From contig OY763927.2 of NCBI GenBank assembly GCA_963667665.2, positions 576,001-640,000 of the forward strand: DNA of 64,000 nucleotides, written 5' to 3'. Source of the DNA: Nitrosopumilus sp. (GTDB taxonomy: Archaea; Thermoproteota; Nitrososphaeria; Nitrososphaerales; Nitrosopumilaceae). Positions within the stretch are counted from its first letter, which is position 1. Each line of letters starts with the position of its first letter. The notes below the pieces were generated by a model that saw only the letters and a list, made by a program, of their open reading frames with translations, was not told the origin of the DNA and ran no database searches. This document shows, one piece after another, positions 8,195 to 19,156 of this stretch. Made by a program: the position numbers and the translations under genes.

Positions 8195-8410
8195 ATGACA
8201 GCCAAGACAATAATCATTCCAGATATTCACAATGATTATTTCACAGCAGAAAAAATAATCAAAAAAGAAAATCCAGACAAAATCATATTTCTGGGAGATT
8301 ATTTTGATGATTTTGATGATACTGTAAAAGATTCAGAAAATACACTTCAATCATATACCGTTAATGACCTGTATTATCACAATTATGTTATATCCACGCA
8401 TGCCAACTGA
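8195..8410 (+). pseudogene. Metallophosphoesterase N-terminal fragment
   Basis: IIPDIHN and FLGDYFD motifs, then abrupt loss before the GNH motif; runs into the opposite-strand gene. Confidence 0.8.
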
Positions 8411-9966
8411 TCTTCCAAATCTTGAATGCGTTGTACCAAACCATTATACGTATTCGTATTGACATCAAGTGCCTCCGTGTCTGCGGTATTCTTCAATGAC
8501 TGACGCTGTACCGACACCTGCTCAAGATCATCGTTCAACATATCTATCTCAGCCTGGACTCTCATTCCTGCCACAGTAGAAATATCCGGTCTTTCTACGT
8601 GAGGTATGCCAAAATTCCTGTCATCATATACACGTATAGAATCAACATTAAAAAAATCGCCAGAGTGCATCAGGTGTGTTTTATCATCCACGTGCCTGAG
8701 TCCAAGATAGTGCCCTATCTCGTGTGCAACAATGTATTGAATAGTTTTATGCGTAAACGGTTGATATGTAGAATGGCAGTCATCGATTCCGAGCCTTACA
8801 GTTATAGAGTGTCTTTCCCTGGTGCCGTCATCAGTAACTCTTGCGCTGTGCAACCCCAATGCAGATCCTGGCATGTACCGTGCCCACTGAATATTCACAT
8901 CTGCATCGGATTCAACTATGGTAAAATCTACATTTGTATTTGCCATGTCCCAGACCCGCGTTGCATCGCTAATAGCCCTCTCTACCGTGGGCTCATCTGC
9001 ATATACAGGTACGTCATCGTATGACACGGTGTGTATATTTGATGCATATTCACTCGTAGTCAGAATCTCTTGCGGTTCTGGATCCACATGAGTCGTATCC
9101 AATTCACTTGATGCGTCTTGAGCGTGTCTCTCGAGGATAATAACATCTATTTCCGGTATGGTCACCTTCTGATCGAATGTTGTGGTGTACTCTGCAAGCC
9201 CCTTTGAGATGCCCCAGAATGCGATCGTCTCACGACCATCAGTCATAAACGGCGGAAGTTCATTCTCAGCCCTATCAAGCCAGTCCTTCTCCCCCTCTGT
9301 TACGGGCTTGTAATTGAGCAGTATTATGTCAGTTGCTGTAAACCGTTCCTGAGTAATTCCTACTCGCAGTATGTATTCGTCGAATGATTGTTTTTTCACT
9401 TGCACCAGAGTACCCTCGTACCGCACTATCTCGCCTGTATGAATTTCACTTTGATTTATGAGCGATTCGTACGGTATAGTCACTGCCTGTCCCTTTATCT
9501 CTTCATCGGTGTACTGTGCAACCGGTTCCGTCTCAAAGGTGCTCGCAGCTAACATGGGCACAAGGAACAACATGGTAATTCCTACCCCCAACCCAAGCGT
9601 CTTGTAGGCCATACTTTTATTTCTCCTGCGCAGTTTTGCGTAGGCAATCAAACCTCCCAACGCCCCCAAAAATATCGGAAGGACATACCATGCCTTGCTT
9701 GGGTGTGAGCCATTTACTGCTTCACTAGAAACGGACTGCTGGTCAGGTGGTAGGCTTGTGACACTATCCTGAGATGTATCGGGTTGTTCAGATTCATCCT
9801 CAGATTCACTGGTTATTTCCTTGCGCAACTGCCCAAACTTTTGCCGTACGTATTGCTCATCGCTGTTGTATATGGGGCGACCGCTTTCGATGCGATCCAT
9901 GATGTATGCCAGTCTCTTTTGGTCGCCCATTTTAGCATCTTGAAGATCCTTTACAATATCTTGCAA
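8383..9966 (-). CDS. Membrane-anchored matrixin-family (metzincin) metalloprotease with OB-fold-like central domain
   Basis: HEIGHYLGLRH zinc motif and LM Met-turn; two TM helices (AWYVLPIFLGALGG); GC-richer than the host backbone. Confidence 0.85.
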   Translation of the reverse strand: MQDIVKDLQDAKMGDQKRLAYIMDRIESGRPIYNSDEQYVRQKFGQLRKEITSESEDESEQPDTSQDSVTSLPPDQQSVSSEAVNGSHPSKAWYVLPIFLGALGGLIAYAKLRRRNKSMAYKTLGLGVGITMLFLVPMLAASTFETEPVAQYTDEEIKGQAVTIPYESLINQSEIHTGEIVRYEGTLVQVKKQSFDEYILRVGITQERFTATDIILLNYKPVTEGEKDWLDRAENELPPFMTDGRETIAFWGISKGLAEYTTTFDQKVTIPEIDVIILERHAQDASSELDTTHVDPEPQEILTTSEYASNIHTVSYDDVPVYADEPTVERAISDATRVWDMANTNVDFTIVESDADVNIQWARYMPGSALGLHSARVTDDGTRERHSITVRLGIDDCHSTYQPFTHKTIQYIVAHEIGHYLGLRHVDDKTHLMHSGDFFNVDSIRVYDDRNFGIPHVERPDISTVAGMRVQAEIDMLNDDLEQVSVQRQSLKNTADTEALDVNTNTYNGLVQRIQDLEDQLACVDIT

Positions 9967-10237
9967 GGAAATATCATCATCTAACTTGGATCACTTAGAA
10001 GTATGGTGTCGTCATACTATTTTAAACCTACTTTGGAATCAGACACATGCTGCGCAAGGTAGTGATATACCGCAAGATGCGTCAAAAGATGGTGACTATC
10101 GGAGAGAAGATCACGTTCGGCACCATAATGACATGTCTATTCACGTGGGACAAGTTGGGGCTGAACCGGTTCGAAAAACTGTCAGAGGCGTTTTGGGTAA
10201 CCTAACCTCTTGCTTACCGGACGCACATAGGCTTTAA

Positions 10238-10570
10238 TTGAATTACAATAATTGCATGAATATGAGCCAACATATTCCAGACTATGTCTTTCCAGAAGAG
10301 ATAGATCAGCAGGTACGTGACAATATCGCTGATCTATATGATGGTGCTTACGATGGCATCCTACTAAATGAAGTGTTTGGAGCAGTTGAGATTCTAATAA
10401 TCATAGCTGTTTGGATTGTTGGCATCTCTCTGCTATCGGGTTTAGCAATTCTATGCGTTCGGAGAATATTCAAGTTTGCTGGTGCTGGCAATTTATCGCT
10501 TATTGATTTACTCAAGAAAGCTGTGGGGGAGGTAAAGAATGAAAAGCCATTCATCTTACACATGTTATGA
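10238..10570 (+). CDS. Hypothetical membrane protein
   Basis: 110-aa ORF with one long hydrophobic segment. Confidence 0.45.
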   Translation: MNYNNCMNMSQHIPDYVFPEEIDQQVRDNIADLYDGAYDGILLNEVFGAVEILIIIAVWIVGISLLSGLAILCVRRIFKFAGAGNLSLIDLLKKAVGEVKNEKPFILHML

Positions 10571-11406
10571 ATTACCATAGTAGCTGAGAGCCTACGCGGT
10601 AAGATCATGTTCTTGTTGCTATTGAGTACCTTGATTGGAAGTACTACTTTTAATTTGTTTGGAAGTATCACAGGAGGATCGCCTATTCCAAACTTTATTG
10701 AACCCTAAGATGCATCTTCTTTGATGACAAGGTTTTGCACTTGAAATTCTTGGAGAAAATCTAAAATTAGGATAACTTGAACTCACTCTGTTAGCAATAA
10801 TCCAAATTACAGTTAAAACCAAAGTCGCGTGTAAAAGGTTGAGGGAGAGTCTCGAGTCACTAATTGCGAAATAGTTTTGGCAAAGGGACGAAGAATGGTA
10901 GTGAGAGAGCGCTTCGAATGGATACGTCAGAAGTTGAAAATGTGCCCCTATAGCAATGCGCATAAGTTTCTGTACGGCCAATTTCTGGGCATCGTCGTCC
11001 CTTGATCATCACATCTTTGTAAATCATCGTCTCCTGCATTCCGAACAGCATCTGTATACCTTCAACGTATTTTTTTCACACAAATTTGTAAGCTAGAACT
11101 ATCTTGGCATTTCACACGAACGTCAATTTAACCGTACTGTTACTAAATAGGAAAAGTCAAAAATTTGTTTCACTAAATGTACACATGCATGGACATAAAA
11201 TGCTAAAACAAGTGCAAAAAGTAGAACATGTAGGCTGCATATCACGTCGGTTATCCATGCTGTTGGCATTTATGGTAATCAAAACATTTGTCAATACTGC
11301 CAAAATATCTTGTTGTGATCGTCGTACTGTTGCCATGTAACATTGCAGGTTTGCATGTGCTGCAAAATCATTTCATGGAATACGACAGGCTCTCTCAGAC
11401 AGATTT

Positions 11407-12501
11407 GTGGAATTTTTCAAGACGTTCAAGAACGAATCAGGCATCTATGCATATGTAGAACTGATTGACAGCTCCATCTATCCGCCCCATCACATCAAGA
11501 TTGATTTTGACGAGCTGACTGAAGAACTGAAGGAGATTGTAAAAAATGAGAGCGAGATCAGGTTACACTTTGCCATCTACCGCAGCATTGGCGAGATATT
11601 TCAGGCAAGATATGGAGGTGCGGAACTGCAGGTTTTTCATGACAATAATTTTTTCAAGTTTGAAATTTTGAACTTTGAAAACTACAGCTCGAAAATTTTT
11701 GAGAGCCCACAACTGATCTACTGGAATAATGCGGATGATGGGTGGTTCAATGACGAAGACAAGATTGACAACGCTGCAATCCAGCTCCAAAAAGACAATC
11801 GCTTTTGTACACTGAGGAAATCAAACGAGATTCTGATGTATGATGGAAAAATCTATGACGATGTTGCAGCGGAGACGGTAATCAAGGAGGAGACGGAGAA
11901 GATAATTCCAAACTGTGGAATCAGAAACAGAATCGAGGTGATAGAAAAAATAAAGGCGCAGACATACACGGACCTGGAACTGTTTGACAGCGACCCCAAC
12001 ATAATCACGATTAACAGCGGAATCCTGGACCTGGAGAAGGTCGAAATCAACGAGCACACCCCACAGAACCAGAGCCGGGTACTGATTCCACGGAATTTCA
12101 AGACCCCCGAATTCAGGATTAATGACAAAACTATTTTTGAAGACATTGAAAAAAACCTGAGGGCTACCGAATTCTGGCAGTTTCTCATAAGATCATTCAC
12201 AATCAATGGGGAACTTCAACAGAAAAGCCTGGAGACAGTTCTGGAAATTTTGGCCGCACCACTGGTGAAGCACCAGATTGACGACAAGGCCTTCATGAAT
12301 CTGGGCAGCGGTGACAATGACAAGTCCGTCTTTCTGGGATATATCGGGGAGATGTATGGAACCAGGAACGGGTCAAACATTGCGCTGCAAGACATCGCGG
12401 ATGACAAGTTCTACCGCGCAAACCTGGACGGAAAAAGCTTCAACATATTTCCTGATCTGGAGAAGAACGAGTTGAGACATGGCTCTGGTAGGTTCTGGTA
12501 A
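11407..12501 (+). pseudogene. Phage/plasmid P4-family (D5-like) primase-helicase, 3'-truncated
   Basis: D5_N-like NSGILDL..EHTP; Walker A degenerate (GSGDNDKS); ends right after the Walker B region where the 23-bp motif begins (12481). Confidence 0.8.
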
Positions 12502-12660
12502 AAAACGGTGATCAAGATCACCAAAATTTAACAGCAGGGTTATGATAGATAATTTCGAGAAAATTACCAAGTACTAATTATCCCAGGATTTCAAAGAGCG
12601 ATTCGGAGAGGATCTATGTCTGATGATTTATGGTGCAGATCACCAGAATTTACCAGAACC
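12491..12660. mobile_element. ~170-bp MITE-like unit with 23-bp imperfect terminal inverted repeats
   Basis: Starts GGTTCTGGTAAAAAACGGTGATC and ends GATCACCAGAATTTACCAGAACC; no coding capacity. Confidence 0.65.
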
Positions 12661-12853
12661 ACCAGAACCAACCAAAGCGCGTGGCATGGTGGAAAGGATC
12701 CGTGGTATGGATGCTTGAAGCGTTTGGAGGTGTCTGTTAAGTTGTCGTCGTGCCTAGAATTGCGTTAACTTCCGTCGCGCGGGTGTTCTAGGGTATAAGA
12801 CGAGTGGGGTTGGAAAGGGGGGATACTCCGGTGGCAAAGTGAGCACGACTGGA

Positions 12854-13606
12854 TTAACCGAGATTTGCCATATCTTTGCGTAGTGTTTGATGAGCATCCT
12901 TAAGAAACCGATTCGCGTGCAGTTTGATTGACTCTGCATTGTGTGCATCAGTTGGGTCAAACCTATCAGCATCTAGTTTGAGCCCGTCATCTGACGTTAG
13001 CGGGTAGTATTTCGCGATGCCTGTTTTAGTGACATCATTAGGATCCTCTGAATGCACCACGAGGTTTCGTAGATGCTTCAGCTGTTCGCTCTTAAGATGT
13101 TGCTCACAATAAAGATACTTGATTGCGGATGCCCAGTCTTTGGAGCGTTCTGCCCGCCTTGCATCTCTAAGGTATCCCAGTCTCTTATTCAGTGAATGGT
13201 TGCCACTCAGTATTTCCTGTAAAACATTATCTGAAATGTTCAATACAGCGTTGTTGCGTATAGAATAAGCAATAGACACATCCCTACATATCCTGCCGTC
13301 ACTTGATTGCTTTCCATGAAAAACCCACTCTGAAAAAGTTCCTGATGTGGCTGAAAGAAGGTCTGTCAGTTTGTCCGCTTTCCTTTTAGCCATGAGCTCC
13401 GCTTCTTCCTCACTATCTGCCTCAACCGTGATTTCAAACCCCTGAATTGTAGTTTGCTCTTTGTACTTACCAAACTTAAATTCGACATCTGATCTATTTG
13501 CCGTGTCGTGTTCGCAATGTATGGGTTCAGTTAACCCAAAGTCAGTTATCCATTTCATGACGCTGTCACAGAACCGCAACTTGTCTTCGCCAATGACCCA
13601 AGGCAT
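12854..13606 (-). CDS. HEPN-like domain protein
   Basis: RxxxxH motif (RNLVVH) in a helical C-terminal half. Confidence 0.55.
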   Translation of the reverse strand: MPWVIGEDKLRFCDSVMKWITDFGLTEPIHCEHDTANRSDVEFKFGKYKEQTTIQGFEITVEADSEEEAELMAKRKADKLTDLLSATSGTFSEWVFHGKQSSDGRICRDVSIAYSIRNNAVLNISDNVLQEILSGNHSLNKRLGYLRDARRAERSKDWASAIKYLYCEQHLKSEQLKHLRNLVVHSEDPNDVTKTGIAKYYPLTSDDGLKLDADRFDPTDAHNAESIKLHANRFLKDAHQTLRKDMANLG

Positions 13607-13932
13607 GGGCTGATATTCTTGGTCAAGGCCGTCTTTAGTATGACCGACGATCTAGAGGGAATTATATAAAAGCTCGGCTGAGCGGGGCTGCGTCTTACAG
13701 ACATAACCAACTGTTCAGCCTCATCAGCGACAATTTCGCTTTCCGGTCCAAGAAACCAAGGCTCAAAACCAGTATCTTCTGCAAGTTTTGGAAAAACATT
13801 CTGTAGTAGGTACATCTCTTTTTGAAGGTGAATAGGACCGGGAATAGATTCTGAGTTTTTGGCACCTAACAGTAGCAAAATGAATCTATCCACCTCATTC
13901 AACTGTGCAATTTTTTCATTAATTTCTGTCAT
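13555..13932 (-). pseudogene. SocA/YwgA-like winged-helix protein, truncated at ~13700
   Basis: LLLL..IPGPIHLQKEMYLL..FEPWFLGPES motif, then an unrelated tail. Confidence 0.6.
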
Positions 13933-13990
13933 ACCACTTTCATTTTCTTTGATAAAAATTTCTTTGCCATCTGTTATAAATGTGATAATA

Positions 13991-14013
13991 GGTTCTGGTA
14001 AATTCTAGTGATC
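13991..14013 (+). repeat. Solo copy of the 23-bp motif
   Basis: GGTTCTGGTAAATTCTAGTGATC. Confidence 0.9.
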
Positions 14014-14095
14014 TACATCATTAATCATTAAATATGGATCTTCTTCAAATTCGATTTCATTGAATCAGATCCAGATAATGAGGATGACAAAAAAA

Positions 14096-14261
14096 GGTTC
14101 TGGTAAATTCTGGTGATCTGCACCATAAATCATCAGACATAGATCCTCTCCGAATCGCTCTTTGAAATCCTGGGATAATTAGTACTTGGTAATTTTCTCG
14201 AAATTATCTATCATAACCCTGCTGTTAAATTTTGGTGATCTTGATCACCGTTTTTTACCAG
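14096..14261. repeat. Inverted copy of 12495-12660 (166 bp)
   Basis: Reverse complement matches 12495-12660 with no differences seen. Confidence 0.95.
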
Positions 14262-14308
14262 GGTTCTGGAAGATTTTGGTGATCAGATCATTAGAATTTA
14301 CCAGAGCC
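14262..14308 (+). repeat. 47-bp hairpin, copy 1
   Basis: GGTTCTGGAAGATTTTGGTGATC-A-GATCATTAGAATTTACCAGAGCC. Confidence 0.95.
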
Positions 14309-14466
14309 TAATGATGTAGATAGGTTAGCATGATCCAAATGTCATCATACCAATTTTAATTGGAACTCTTGATGATATGATTATAAAAATAAAAACACCT
14401 TTAGCTTCAACATAGTCAAAATGAATTGAATACTTTCTTAATAATAACAACTTTAAGATTGCTTTA

Positions 14467-15669
14467 ATGACAACAACAACGAAAAAAATGTTGATGCTAA
14501 CTGCCGTACTGACAATGGTTATCATACCTGGTTCAGTTTATGCAGCTGGTTTTAATGAACATCAAGTAGAAAGTGTATCTGGCAATATAGGAAAAGTTGC
14601 TGATGGCACATTTGATGAGAAGGTCGCTCAAGATAGATTAGAATATCTTATGGTAGACCAAGCTGAAACTGGAGTATCACATGAAAATGAAATAACAGCA
14701 ATAGAAACAGAATACCAAAAACTATATCAGATGGATACTACTCTTCGTGACGAATACCAAGTATTAGCTGATTTGCTAACAGAGACATTGGTTACTCTTC
14801 ATGCAGATAAATCTAGAGCTATCGAAGATAGAATGTCCGAACTTCCTATAGTTAAAATTGGCGTCAGCTCAAAAACACAATCTCTTGCTATTGGATTAGA
14901 CAATGATTACGTTAGTGAGGCGGATATATCAAAATGGAAAAAATACATTAGAAATATGCTAAGCAATTCGGATGTAAAATTGACCATAACTGTAGGTTCA
15001 GCTCCAACTCTTGATACACACACATCCAATAGAGAAACTACTACTGTAGATCCCCTAAAAGGTGGTGCAAGTGGTGGGATTTGAAGATGGTTCTAACAAC
15101 ATTACATGCTCAGTTGGATATATGGCAACTGAAAATGGATCTGGCGATACTGGATTTGTTTCAGCAGGCCATTGTACTGATCTTGTCGGTTGGGACAAAC
15201 AGGTATTGACATTCATCAACCAGTAGCCACTACAACAAATGACATTGCAGTAGTAGATGAAGAAGATTTCAGTTCTTCAACATATTGTGATTGCTCATGG
15301 AATGAGTTCAATTCTGGTGAGAGTGGTGTAGCAAAAACCATGTATAGTCTAACATCCGACTTTCCTGTATATAGTCAATATACCGTCACATCAAGTAGTG
15401 AAGGATTGGCTGTTTACAAATCTGGTGCTAAGACAGGATATAGCGTAGGTGTTATCGACGAATGGAAAACCACAATCGTTGCAGATGGAGCTACCCTCAA
15501 AAATGTAGTTCAATCAACATATTCTGCACAAGGTGGAGATAGTGGGGGTTCCTTCATGCGATTAAATGGCATTGCAGGAATTCATGTAGCACATGATGAT
15601 GATTATTCATATGCTGTAACTGTTTCAAGAACAAACTATTACTTAGGAGTAACACCAGTCTTCTCCTAG
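14467..15669 (+). pseudogene. Secreted S1 (chymotrypsin/alpha-lytic-like) serine protease with two frameshifts
   Basis: Signal and pro-region; GFVSAGHC in an intermediate frame (~15071-15189); CDC and GGDSGG in 15190-15669. Confidence 0.8.
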
Positions 15670-15679
15670 TAATTTTTTT

Positions 15680-16279
15680 TTATTTATATTTTCTAGAAAA
15701 CCAAATTAAAAATAAACTACAACATATTATAATTACAGAAACAGAAATTACAGGATCAACAACAAAAGGATGAACAGAAGGGGTAATGTCAGGTTGTGGA
15801 ATCTCACTAGTTTTATTTACAATATAGACTGATCTATCTAATGAAATTTTAGAGTCAAATATTTGTTGATTTGTACTTAACCATGTAGTTATTACGGCAA
15901 TTGTAACAGTCAGAAACTTTACCCCTTCTTTAAAAAACTTCTTTAAAAATTCATTCTCATGTACTTCTTTTTTGGTCTGGGTTGCTGTGACAAACATGTT
16001 TGGCACCATTTTATAGTATTTGTGGTCCACTCCTTTCTTTACAATTTGTTTGTGTGTTACTATCAATAATCCCAACTCTTCGAGTTTCTTGAGATGAAAT
16101 ATTGTAATATTCATTTGAATTCCTAATTTCTTTGATATCTGGTTTATGTACATCTCTTCTTGTGTTAAAAGTTGTATTATCTTTCTGCTTGTTTCAGTGG
16201 AGAGAAGTTGACCCAGAATCTTTAGTGATTCATCATCATTACCAAAAACTCTGATTTTTGTGTTATTCTCTTCAGTCAA
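15680..16279 (-). CDS. ArsR-type winged-helix regulator with C-terminal transmembrane segments
   Basis: LSTETSRKIIQLL..YINQISKKL..FHLKKLEELGL; two hydrophobic helices. Confidence 0.85.
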   Translation of the reverse strand: MTEENNTKIRVFGNDDESLKILGQLLSTETSRKIIQLLTQEEMYINQISKKLGIQMNITIFHLKKLEELGLLIVTHKQIVKKGVDHKYYKMVPNMFVTATQTKKEVHENEFLKKFFKEGVKFLTVTIAVITTWLSTNQQIFDSKISLDRSVYIVNKTSEIPQPDITPSVHPFVVDPVISVSVIIICCSLFLIWFSRKYK

Positions 16280-16428
16280 ATTAGTAATTTGTTACAAAAT
16301 AGAATTGCTATTAATCTTTAAGATTATAATATACCTTTTAATTGTGAATGATATTTGATTTTTCCTCTTAAAACATTCAATGACAATTGAATATAGTCTT
16401 AAATCAATTTTAAAAATAACCTCAATTA

Positions 16429-16722
16429 ATGAATAGAAAATCTACTATCTCGGTTCTTAGTGGACTTGTAGCTGTGTTAGCAATAGCATCTTTGGGTTTT
16501 GGAATTCCCCCACAAGAAGCAGAAGCAAGTCACAACGGAGAGCCAACAATGTGGGTTAATGGAATCAATGATGGACAAACTCATAGTTACATCTACAATG
16601 TACCAGCACCAAATCTGGACATGAGTGTTGCATTATTGATTAAAGATATGGCAGAAAAACCAAATGTGGTTCTGGAAGATTTTGGTGATCAGATCATTAG
16701 AATTTACCAGAACCTTCCATGA
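16429..16722 (+). pseudogene. Secreted protein truncated at the 47-bp hairpin
   Basis: Signal peptide ending AEA; the last ~17 codons are read mostly from the hairpin. Confidence 0.7.
16668..16714 (+). repeat. 47-bp hairpin, copy 2
   Basis: Matches 14262-14308 except one base (GAACC vs GAGCC). Confidence 0.95.
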
Positions 16723-17645
16723 ATAGAAACTGGAAAAAATACAACCAAACACTAGTAAGAAGAGGTGAAATCATGCTGTCTTTTGATGCCATAGAATCAT
16801 GGACAAAAGAACTCAAAGAAATGAATCGCAGAAAAGAAGGACACCAGTATGTTTATCCTGAATTATTCATGGAAGCACTGGGATACTGCCATGCATATCT
16901 GCATCTTCCATATAGACAAACTGAAGGTCTGATAAAATCACATCTCAAATCCAAGACAGAAACACCAACATATTCTGCCATCTGGAAAAGAGTAAACAAG
17001 CTTGACATCAAGATGAGCCCAAAGCTGGGAAAAGACATTGTCATTGCAATAGATAGTTCAGGAATCAAGGTTGCAGACAGGGGTGAGTGGATGAGACAGA
17101 AATGGCAGAAAAGAAGAGGATTTCTCAAGATTCATGTGGCAGCAGATGTAAAATCAAAACAGATTACAGGTTTGGAAATTACAGATGATCATTCCCATGA
17201 TTCCAAATCTTTTGTATCACTAGTTGAGCAGTCAAAGCAATTTGGAAATGTGACTAAGACACTAGCTGATGGTGCATATGACAAAAGATAATTTTTCATA
17301 TTTGTACCATGGTAACATAATTCCAGGAATCAAGACAAGAAAGAACTCATCAGTTACTACTGATTGCTATCCAAGAAGAAAGGCAGTACTGGCCCAAATG
17401 TATAATTATGATTTGCAGAAGAACAGCGTAAGCTATGGCGATAGGTGGATCGTAGAAGGAGTGTTTTCTGCATTTAAGAAAATGTTTGGAGAGCCTGTCA
17501 CATCACACAAAAGAGAAAACATGATTCATGAGTTGAAAATGAAGGTCTGTCTGTACAATAAAATGATTGCAATGCAATAGAAAAATCAAAATTGTTTCAA
17601 ATGGTTAGATGGTGTTAATGATTAGTTGGTGTTGGGAAACAAAGC
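16719..17645 (+). mobile_element. IS5-family (IS903-like) element, frameshifted transposase, left end missing
   Basis: NWKKYNxxLVRRGE, IDSSGIK, KIHVAAD, ADGAYD and RWIVEGVFS; frameshift at ~17283; right end ...GGGAAACAAAGC. Confidence 0.88.
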
Positions 17646-17827
17646 AGTTCTTATCATAATGATCTTGAATTTACTATGGCAATAAGAGTGGCGATCAAAA
17701 ATTAGATCGCTTTTAATATTTATTTAAATATTTATAATTCTTAATTGTTTCACCAACATTACATAATATCTAGTATGTGCATCATCATTTTTTTCCTTAT
17801 TGTGTTAATTCGTTTACAGATTCAAAA

Positions 17828-18178
17828 TTTAGTTTTTTGTTTAGAAAAAAAGAGATCAAGGTACTGCATTCTTTGATTTTTTTTTAAAAAATATATTCCT
17901 AATTTTTCCCAAAATGTTGATGGTAATGTAAGATACAGAAATCCAATAGATGAAATACGTAATTATACCAAGAGCAATATAAACATCAGGTGTATTATAT
18001 TCATCAGCAAGTAATGCAAAAGATAAAAGTATCATTACTCCTGGATTGAGGAGCATTGTCCATCCTCCAAGATATACATTTAATTCCATAAGAATTATCG
18101 TAATTAATATTCCATATACTGGTAAAATTATGTAAAGAAAGTTTAGTTTTTTGTTTAGAAAAAAAGAGATCAAGGTAC
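17828..18178. repeat. Perfect 37-bp direct repeat (17828-17864 and 18142-18178)
   Basis: TTTAGTTTTTTGTTTAGAAAAAAAGAGATCAAGGTAC occurs twice. Confidence 0.95.
17856..18173 (-). CDS. Small multi-pass membrane protein lying between the 37-bp repeats
   Basis: Three hydrophobic segments; both termini are supplied by the repeat. Confidence 0.5.
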   Translation of the reverse strand: MISFFLNKKLNFLYIILPVYGILITIILMELNVYLGGWTMLLNPGVMILLSFALLADEYNTPDVYIALGIITYFIYWISVSYITINILGKIRNIFFKKKSKNAVP

Positions 18179-18526
18179 GGTGACCTTTGAGTATCCTGGA
18201 TTTGTATCAGATGTATCCATCATATGGTTCCAAGTATTGCTAACATATACTACTTGTCCTGGTGTGTAGGCTTTGATTGTAGTTTCATGACAAGCAAATA
18301 TCAAAGACAAACAATCATAGTCGTTTGTTGAACTCCATGTGTTGTCAAACTCAATTAGATTGTTATTGTGTATGATAATTGGTTCGACATCATATATTCT
18401 GTGGAGCCAAAACAAACGCACTTCATCATAAAATTCATCTAGATTAGGATGATCCTCATCATAGAATTTCAATTCGTATAGAGTTTCACAATGACTAGAG
18501 AGTGGTGTTGTTTCAATTTCATACAA
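18170..18526 (-). pseudogene. C-terminal fragment of a probable secreted protein
   Basis: No signal peptide; abuts the methylase fragment. Confidence 0.45.
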
Positions 18527-18892: not shown

Positions 18893-19052
18893 TTTGCCAT
18901 ATTACAGTATTCTAGATTGATGCAGGATTATCTCAACAAGAAAACACCAATTGTAGGTGATGCATGGCGAGCTGATGAAGTGTATACTAGAATCAGAGGT
19001 GAGATGAAGTATGTATTTTCTTTAATGGATTCAGAAACCAGATTTTGGATTA
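18893..19052 (+). pseudogene. IS6-family DDE transposase internal fragment
   Basis: WRADEVYTRIRGEMKYVFSLMDSETRFWI. Confidence 0.75.
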
Positions 19053-19156
19053 ATTTTGGTCGTCTATCTTTGCCCACTTTTGGAACTATTGTAGTTTGTT
19101 CTCCATGATTGATATATTTTAAAATATTTTTCAACTTTTGAAAGATCAGAAAGAAA

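Follow-up and report, generated by a model that had tools for sequence, protein, structure and literature searches.

Among archaea, MITEs (miniature transposable elements with inverted repeats) have been described from Sulfolobus, haloarchaea and methanogens, as small non-autonomous derivatives of resident insertion sequences (ISs). The closest described system to the elements considered here is the IS6/IS26 family, which has GG tips and short terminal inverted repeats. According to the parts of PMC7986276 consulted, an 8-bp target duplication is the hallmark of IS6, and replicative intramolecular events delete or invert adjacent DNA, erase the duplications and yield arrays and pseudo-compound structures. 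The same parts record two IS6 MITEs listed in ISfinder, of 227 and 336 bp, and Nitrosopumilus is not among the archaeal IS6 clades that they name (PMC7986276). The present analysis concerns a stretch of 64,000 nucleotides from Nitrosopumilus sp. (GenBank assembly GCA_963667665.2, contig OY763927.2, positions 576,001 to 640,000 of the forward strand), referred to below as the window, in which a first-pass annotation had noticed a 23-bp repeated motif (here called the arm) at apparent rearrangement breakpoints and had proposed a new mobile or recombination system. We read the arms, with a probability of roughly 0.77, as the terminal inverted repeats of a gene-less MITE family descended from Nitrosopumilus IS6-family insertion sequences. 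They resemble the archaeal MITEs mentioned above, although parent families and hosts differ. Elements of this kind are known, and what is new lies in two traits, a 47-bp form that consists of repeats only and a fixed spacing to GATC. The proposal of a new system was not upheld: the units are derivatives of a long-known IS family and behave as that family is known to, as far as the consulted parts of PMC7986276 describe it.

The arm is laid out as GG-TTCTGGT-AAA-TTCTGGT-GATC, in which two heptads spaced 10 bp apart, the length of one helical turn, are followed by GATC. Seven matches to the 23-mer with no more than three mismatches were found in the window, at 12638(-), 13991(+), 14096(+), 14262(+), 14286(-), 16668(+) and 16692(-), compared with none in 100 shuffles, and relaxing the threshold to five mismatches brought in the arms at 12491(+), 12516(-) and 14218(+). 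The arm at 14243 has 19 nt, its last 4 bases being absent, and partial arms occupy 12481–12490 and 12661–12669. All full, degenerate and partial arms annotated in the first pass were present, and none was found in the window outside this cluster. Across the whole 1.89-Mb genome, 17 matches with up to five mismatches were obtained (12 of them within C1:567,791-592,714); the other five are isolated, each with five mismatches.

Arms are combined into two forms of unit, M (∼170–240 bp) and P (47 bp), the latter made of only two repeats: two slightly different arms that face each other across 1 base. P has a polarity in most of 44 copies, one arm ending in ...ATTTTGGTGATC and the other in ...ATTCTAGTGATC, with a central A or T. 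M units carry outward-pointing GG tips at both ends, and the left-hand M unit of the window runs from a terminal arm through ∼99 bp with a subterminal GATC to an inner arm and an inverted terminal arm. The ∼170-bp unit described in the first pass is real: its two copies, inverted relative to each other, agree at every one of 166 bases (Table 1). Besides the two P units of the window (P2 and P3), a third 47-bp palindrome (P1) lies at C1:567,791-567,837, 8.2 kb upstream of the window. The local rearrangements are recent, since the three P copies of the genome differ by 1–2 bases and the two M copies are identical.

The units stand at truncated sequences in the window, as had been claimed for a primase cut at 12481, a secreted-protein gene cut at 16668 and an IS5 left end lost at 16714; all three junctions were borne out by comparison with intact relatives. 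Homologues of the primase-helicase are 510–555 aa long, and their alignment with the window gene holds only to residues 307–351, stopping at window position 12480/12486. The gene is short by ∼200 codons at 12480, its DUF5906 match spans only profile positions 3–57 of 114, and its TIGR01613 match is partial; the last ∼200 residues of the homologues had no other match in the genome except a distant paralogue. For the secreted protein, 15 homologues of 147–167 aa were found, and the window copy, aligned with four of them, resembles them to residue 80 (nt 16667) and then runs into P3, leaving the gene short by ∼70 codons. A second IS5 copy, at C1:743,4xx, retains its left repeat TGCTGTGTTTCCTAAC intact, 75 bp upstream of the base that matches the start of the window copy at 16715. 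As both flanks of P3 (secreted gene and IS5 copy) are truncated, P3 joins two unrelated truncated sequences. No target duplications surround the arm units of the window, in agreement with the first-pass annotation.

A motif search of the genome and of the family Nitrosopumilaceae revealed a multi-copy repeat that extends well beyond this genome (G and L numbers denote comparison genomes and loci, respectively). Arms with no more than three mismatches were present in 18 of 401 family genomes. These include 15 of the 98 other genomes assigned to the same genus, a single genome from a second genus, and an unpublished genome with one weak match, on which nothing else rests here. A control with the reversed motif over the same 401 genomes gave one match in total. 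Copy number reached 22–23 arms per genome, dispersed along the chromosome. All 15 same-genus carriers have genomes of 1.9–2.6 Mb; because these carriers are kin, the size pattern is not an independent test. When a 17-nt core of P was compared with species genomes, at least 121 loci were matched, with 24 true two-arm units among the matches listed. Titles were available for 80 of the 121 loci. Among the titled two-arm loci, only one, labelled just ‘bacterium’, does not come from a Nitrosopumilus sp. assembly, and several of these assemblies are complete chromosomes. Across all loci collected, 80 complete units were counted; they measured 47–318 bp (38 of exactly 47 bp and four of 48 bp), held no transposase gene and had unrelated flanks; they are small, gene-less and multi-copy, as MITEs are. 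Arm regions in the same-genus genome G367 (L205–L208; contigs C1, C3 and C9) have 51–54% G+C and are crowded with IS66, IS481/rve-type and IS5 genes; AT-rich arms persist in hosts of widely differing base composition. An apparently circular, arm-bearing contig in G387 (C22) encodes housekeeping enzymes and was read as a chromosomal contig with a terminal overlap.

Repeats of this kind could also be palindromes that serve the host (similar to repetitive extragenic palindromes or bacterial interspersed mosaic elements, REP/BIME, or working as terminators or as sites of protein binding) and that owe their spread to recombination or to a Y1 transposase, or even an assembly or adapter artefact. P can indeed fold as a 23-bp hairpin and is mostly intergenic, and short-read contigs break at M and P. 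Unlike REP/BIME, however, a single arm is a direct heptad repeat and no short palindrome, M has the architecture of a transposon, and searches of Rfam and of a plasmid collection gave no match. Furthermore, the family has diverged by up to several bases per arm over 18 species-level genomes, including complete long-read chromosomes. The arm-bearing stretch was recovered almost whole in runs of several studies, and in four runs from four studies its unique pieces are present in contigs that end at M and P. Depth summed at M and P was 5–19 times that of neighbouring unique DNA, as expected for a repeat, and in one run P adjoins at least five other flanks; these run data are contigs, which cannot show linkage across M or P or rare variants and whose uncovered parts are uninformative. 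The adapter artefact was set aside on the strength of the divergence of the family and its multiple copies in many assemblies and in the run contigs of several studies, and the explanation as a whole is one to which we attach very little credence. Among viral contigs, five matches to the 17-nt core were found, none with arms.

Descent from IS6 is suggested by the ends of IS6-like elements resident in the same genomes. Arms and these ends agree at as many as 19 of 23 bases, carry the same GGTTCTG at the tip and have a subterminal AAATATGGATCTTCT in common, and both the GG tips and GGTTCTG are invariant in an alignment of them (A4). A 983-bp element of G370, with a 225-aa PF13610 open reading frame (ORF), is bounded by 36-bp repeats GGTTCTGTGTAATCTTCGGGACTTGAGAAATATGGATC, and the 15-nt AAATATGGATCTTCT of its ends is found again in the window, in the unit at 13991, as well as in G353, where 14 M copies have it. 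The genome under study has, at C1:477 kb, an IS6-like element of its own with an intact ORF of 321 aa; the right repeat of this element matches an arm variant at 19 of 23 positions. In view of these similarities, M is best described as an IS6-type end region closed by an inverted arm. Genes for the IS6/IS240 DDE domain (PF13610) are frequent in the arm-bearing genomes. Most of the IS6-like ORFs carry an additional N-terminal zinc-binding domain, in which they resemble the longer IS6 clades described in the consulted parts of PMC7986276. Their best model was NF033587 (the IS6 family model), with full-length matches of 102–117 bits, and PF13610 scored 44.7–57.2 bits against a cut-off of 27.

The units might instead be MITEs that stem from another DDE family, such as IS1595 or ISL3, in which GG tips and duplications of 8 bp are likewise found; the resemblance to IS6 would then be superficial. 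GG tips together with 8-bp duplications are not unique to IS6 in the ISfinder family tables, the N-terminal zinc-binding domain of the IS6-like ORFs is named IS1/IS1595-type by NCBIfam, and a weak Zn_ribbon_IS1595 match lies 7 kb from P1. The likeness extends past the tip, however, to the 19 of 23 bases and the 15-nt subterminal motif described above, and belongs to elements whose ORFs score best as IS6; in the loci annotated, no IS1595 or ISL3 transposase stands beside arms. We consider this origin quite improbable.

The behaviour of the units also points to IS6. One P, at G177:C1:1309930-1309976 (L252), is flanked by a perfect 8-bp duplication CCCTTGAT, the single case among 80 complete elements (chance ∼0.001). 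Together with the resemblance of the arms to resident IS6-like ends, it lends support to the idea, already put forward in the first pass, of a non-autonomous element with IS6-like ends. Target duplications are also missing at all six boundaries of IS6-like elements checked, and in G370 two bona fide IS6 copies are alike on one flank and different on the other, with no duplication.

Comparison of G343 with its close relative G369 placed P at a synteny break in all three loci tested, homology ending at the outer base of P. At two of these loci one flank of P is present in G369, with homology from the base next to P and P absent there, and at one of the two the remaining flank aligns, with 74% identity, to G369 DNA 1.4 Mb distant. 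The third locus has a left flank and P common to both genomes, after which they diverge. The association of the motif with breakpoints therefore extends beyond the window. Bracketed cargo, likewise annotated in the first pass, was also encountered elsewhere: in G370, inverted M pairs enclose cargo stretches of 12 kb and 7 kb, and G369 has P-cargo-P arrays. In these respects the units are similar to the pseudo-compound transposons and translocatable units of IS26 (as described in the consulted parts of the literature), where paired or arrayed units bracket cargo without flanking duplications beside truncated genes and IS ends. Unlike IS26 units, the repeated arm unit carries no transposase, and direct (P2–P3) and inverted (M–M) pairs both occur; an IS26-like reaction would therefore need an enzyme supplied in trans. 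A circular form was not encountered, no search aimed at one having been made.

In G353, five of the 14 M copies (L215, L216, L219, L223 and L225) contain a ∼1.3-kb IS110-family element with a Transposase_20-like ORF, inserted at one fixed site (∼1627 of the oriented locus). Some IS110 members target repeated elements, and an IS110 member appears to target the M-type MITE; it is a secondary passenger and not the mover of the arms.

The P-cargo-P arrays raise the question of whether P is the site of a site-specific recombinase, with crossover in the central GATC-N-GATC and with the segments between P units as cassettes (integron- or dif-type). The conserved polarity of P, the direct arrays in G369 and between P2 and P3, and the near absence of target duplications are all compatible with such a site; in addition, G353 M copies stop at GATC where the centre of P would be, and a tyrosine recombinase gene lies ∼250 bp from an M unit in G367. 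As in integrons, imperfect polar palindromes (there attC) separate cargo that looks promoter-less. Unlike integrons, no integrase or attI is nearby: 16 PF00589 matches were found in the genome, none of them in the arm-bearing stretch C1:567.8-592.7 kb, the nearest being at 617.5 kb. The attC consensus (R-box) GTTRRRY is not shown by the arm sequence and does not fit GGTTCTGG. The arms are related to IS6-like transposon ends, M has outward GG tips at both ends in the manner of a transposon, one P is flanked by an 8-bp duplication, which recombinases do not make, and in the window it is the units' outer tips, and not the middle of the units, that coincide with the truncations. A recombinase site is, in our judgement, improbable.

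Under descent from IS6, the movements of the units can be accounted for as follows. An IS6-like DDE transposase, supplied in trans, would bind the arms; a helper is invoked because no autonomous element with arm-type ends turned up. The units would be moved by IS6-type replicative chemistry with an 8-bp staggered cut of the target, and events within the same replicon would subsequently cause deletion or inversion of neighbouring DNA and loss of the target duplication. The expected outcome would be units at truncated-gene junctions and in pairs or arrays that bracket cargo, as with IS26, with P as the repeat-only minimum of the IS6-type unit.

A further regularity was seen in the flanking DNA. 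GATC starts 23 bp out from the GG tip in 39 of 171 distinct flanks, with 14 more at offset 24 and six at offset 22 (59 of 171 at 22–24 bp beyond the tip in all); other offsets had a mean of 1.16 and a maximum of 4, corresponding to a Poisson probability of ∼5e-45 in which orthologous copies of sister genomes may count twice. The regularity holds for P arms and for other arms, and no further flank position is conserved. In the simple insertion of P in G177, the duplicated 8 bp are followed by 15 bases and then GATC. GATC also appears in the two P-free counterparts that G369 has of these G343 flanks, one at 23 nt and the second at 21 nt, and for this reason the flank GATC is a property of the target and not of the element. 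The idea that the 23 nt before the outer GATC are degenerate arms was rejected, as one flank checked by hand agreed at 6 of 19 positions, which is chance level.

The GATC within the arm begins 19 bases from the tip. The centre of the 8-bp cut is likewise separated by 19 bp from a target GATC that lies 23 bp beyond the junction. Judging from these equal distances, an enzyme that reads GATC in its own end may use a target GATC as a docking point too, and the target would in that way mimic an element end. It is conceivable, and offered here only as a tentative proposal, that the arm elements constitute an IS6 sub-lineage whose transposase reads GATC in both its own end and the target, a molecular ruler that chooses insertion sites, with the 47-bp units serving as portable polar recombination handles for accessory genes.

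A number of observations weigh against descent from IS6. Target duplications are lacking around 79 of the 80 complete elements, and a comparison of empty and filled sites, run for P1 and for the P with the 8-bp duplication, recovered no empty site. No autonomous element with arm-type ends was found in 28 PF13610 loci from six genomes, in further loci or in one metagenome scan, and the best repeat of any transposase-bearing element agrees with the arm at 19 of 23 positions. The 102–117 bits of the IS6-like ORFs fall under the curated NCBIfam cut-off of 125 for NF033587. PF13610 genes are present in all 11 arm-bearing genomes tested and also in two of five arm-free genomes tested, so their co-occurrence with arms is not specific. 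At the place of cTGTt in the family consensus (consulted parts of PMC7986276), most arms have CTGGT, and only some variants show CTGTT (CTGTTAAA); they also depart from IS6 ends in their 23-bp layout with two heptads and terminal GATC, and, unlike the IS6 MITEs, they occur most often in a form that measures just 47 bp and lacks internal sequence. The fixed-distance GATC is present in roughly one third of the flanks, a spacing rule that is no known IS6 trait and that was seen at none of 17 ends of IS6-like elements, whose repeats read GTGATA and not GTGATC. Lastly, the polarity of P and its arrays with cargo would also fit a site-specific recombination site.

Candidates for a parent were examined individually. 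The scan of the 28 PF13610 loci yielded only three weak arm matches, with 5–6 mismatches, and one of these, in L057, lies outside the repeated unit and was put down to chance. The metagenome scan gave three loci, all M-type and none with a transposase. A frameshifted IS6-like gene downstream of a solo arm (L285, G370) was dismissed, as its own right repeat agrees with the arm at only 15 of 23 positions, and unnamed large ORFs beside arms of G367 proved to have a WING-49 domain or a RecB-like nuclease fold and no transposase character. In L283 (2195–6172; G370:C1:745,195-749,172) a 3,978-bp element is separated by 140 bp from an M unit; its IS6-type inverted repeats of 25 bp are perfect, and its three ORFs encode passengers of 436 and 373 aa and an IS6-like transposase of 442 aa. 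Elsewhere in the genome under study, a 493-aa frame in L054 (1345–2823; C1:403.8-405.3 kb) combines an N6-adenine DNA methylase domain with an IS6-type DDE domain, and could have arisen when an IS6-like element entered a methyltransferase gene or became fused to one.

The features of the locus are collected in Table 1. The first-pass annotation had also pointed to an IS6 fragment at ∼18.9 kb; the fragment is real, but it is tiny and stands apart from the arms.

Table 1. Arm units and associated features of the window (positions in the 64,000-nt stretch).
Feature	Position	Strand	Basis or remark
5' part of D5/P4-type primase-helicase gene, cut inside helicase domain	11407..12480	+	Pfam D5_N, DUF5906
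Partial arm of 10 nt (GGCTCTGGTA), abutting M unit	12481..12490	+	Equals first 10 nt of the GGC-variant arm of P2
M unit, ∼170 bp	12491..12660	-	12495-12660 100% identical to inverted 14096-14261
Additional partial arm, one further TTCTGGT heptad	12661..12669	-	Direct reading
Cargo of 1.33 kb, GC-rich, between inverted M units	12661..13990	-	Two minus-strand ORFs, 12854-13606 and 13555-13932
Truncated M-type end, arm plus subterminal AAATATGGATCTTCT	13991..14051	+	Motif also in ends of IS6-like elements
Second M unit, inverted relative to 12491-12660	14096..14261	+	Last arm 4 bases short where P2 abuts
P2, 47-bp unit, two facing arms across 1 nt	14262..14308	+	
Segment of 2.36 kb between directly oriented P2 and P3	14309..16667	.	
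P3, 47-bp unit differing from P2 by 1 nt, at the junction of two truncated sequences	16668..16714	+	
IS5-family copy without its first 75 bp, including left inverted repeat	16715..17646	+	Pfam DDE_Tnp_1_5, DDE_Tnp_1
IS6-family transposase gene relic, short, no flanking arms	18920..19060	+	PF13610 22.7 bits; NF033587 positions 48-98 of 202

The two ORFs of the cargo between the M units had no family match in Pfam, NCBIfam or PADLOC, and the cargo had no counterpart across 100 same-genus genomes except one weak 210-bp match. Alignment of the primase homologues ruled out that this cargo is the missing half of the primase gene. The cargo belongs to a block (8500–14000) of 41–47% G+C, compared with ∼26–38% for most of the flanking DNA, whose right edge is the arm at 13991. 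Besides small unnamed ORFs, the block also holds the truncated primase-helicase gene and, on the minus strand at 8383–9966, an M10-like metallopeptidase ORF. A search of five genomes for the source of its part at 8400–12480, made without a positive control, gave no match.

Between P2 and P3 lie a split gene for a secreted trypsin-like protease, an ArsR-type regulator and the truncated secreted-protein gene (16429–16667). The protease is divided into two ORFs (14467–15084 and 15190–15669); contigs of two runs have an extra G after 15191, and one of these also has an extra C after 15226, so the split may be strain-specific. Downstream of the IS5 copy, a ∼37-bp direct repeat (TTTAGTTTTTTGTTTAGAAAAAAAGAGATCAAGGTAC; 17826–17866 and 18141–18180) brackets a small membrane-protein-like ORF (17856–18173, minus strand), and the contigs of one run omit 235 bp between the two repeats.

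Upstream of the window, L001 7256–15459 (C1:565,256-573,459) contains plasmid-like or integrative-and-conjugative-element-like genes, including a TraG/HerA-type P-loop ATPase, an actin-like (ParM-type) protein, a staphylococcal-nuclease-like protein and a split IS5 transposase. The arms appear to be placed in a decayed integrated element. WING-49 genes (NCBIfam NF058652; L001 9901–10914) adjoin P1, as they adjoin arms in G367 (L207 784–2274 and 3728–5290); the family is multi-copy in the genus.

A full-text literature search returned no description of MITEs in Nitrosopumilus or Thaumarchaeota. The consulted parts of a 2019 survey of thaumarchaeal mobile elements list IS families and do not contain the word ‘MITE’ (PMC6563490), and those of a 2026 survey of archaeal ISs treat MITEs in general only, with a Nitrosopumilus assembly at the top of its phylum for IS content (PMC13343696). 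The string ‘Nitrosopumil’ does not occur in the main text of a 2024 MITE census, whose sequence supplements could contain these units (PMC11602168). As far as our searches of the literature reach, the host group has no earlier description of such MITEs.

The genomes of ammonia-oxidising archaea are generally regarded as small and stable. In a subset of Nitrosopumilus genomes, of 1.9–2.6 Mb, gene-less transposons mark the exact places at which accessory DNA has been cut and rejoined. With the arm as a simple sequence tag, rearrangement junctions and captured cargo can be located in these genomes, and the repeated arms explain why short-read assemblies break at M and P. Should the flank GATC not reflect target choice, the finding is otherwise that of an ordinary MITE family; if it does, it would be an unusual and testable property of an IS6-type enzyme. 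In that event, the 47-bp units would act on accessory genes, many of which code for secreted proteins, by deleting, inverting and re-assorting them among the large-genome Nitrosopumilus.

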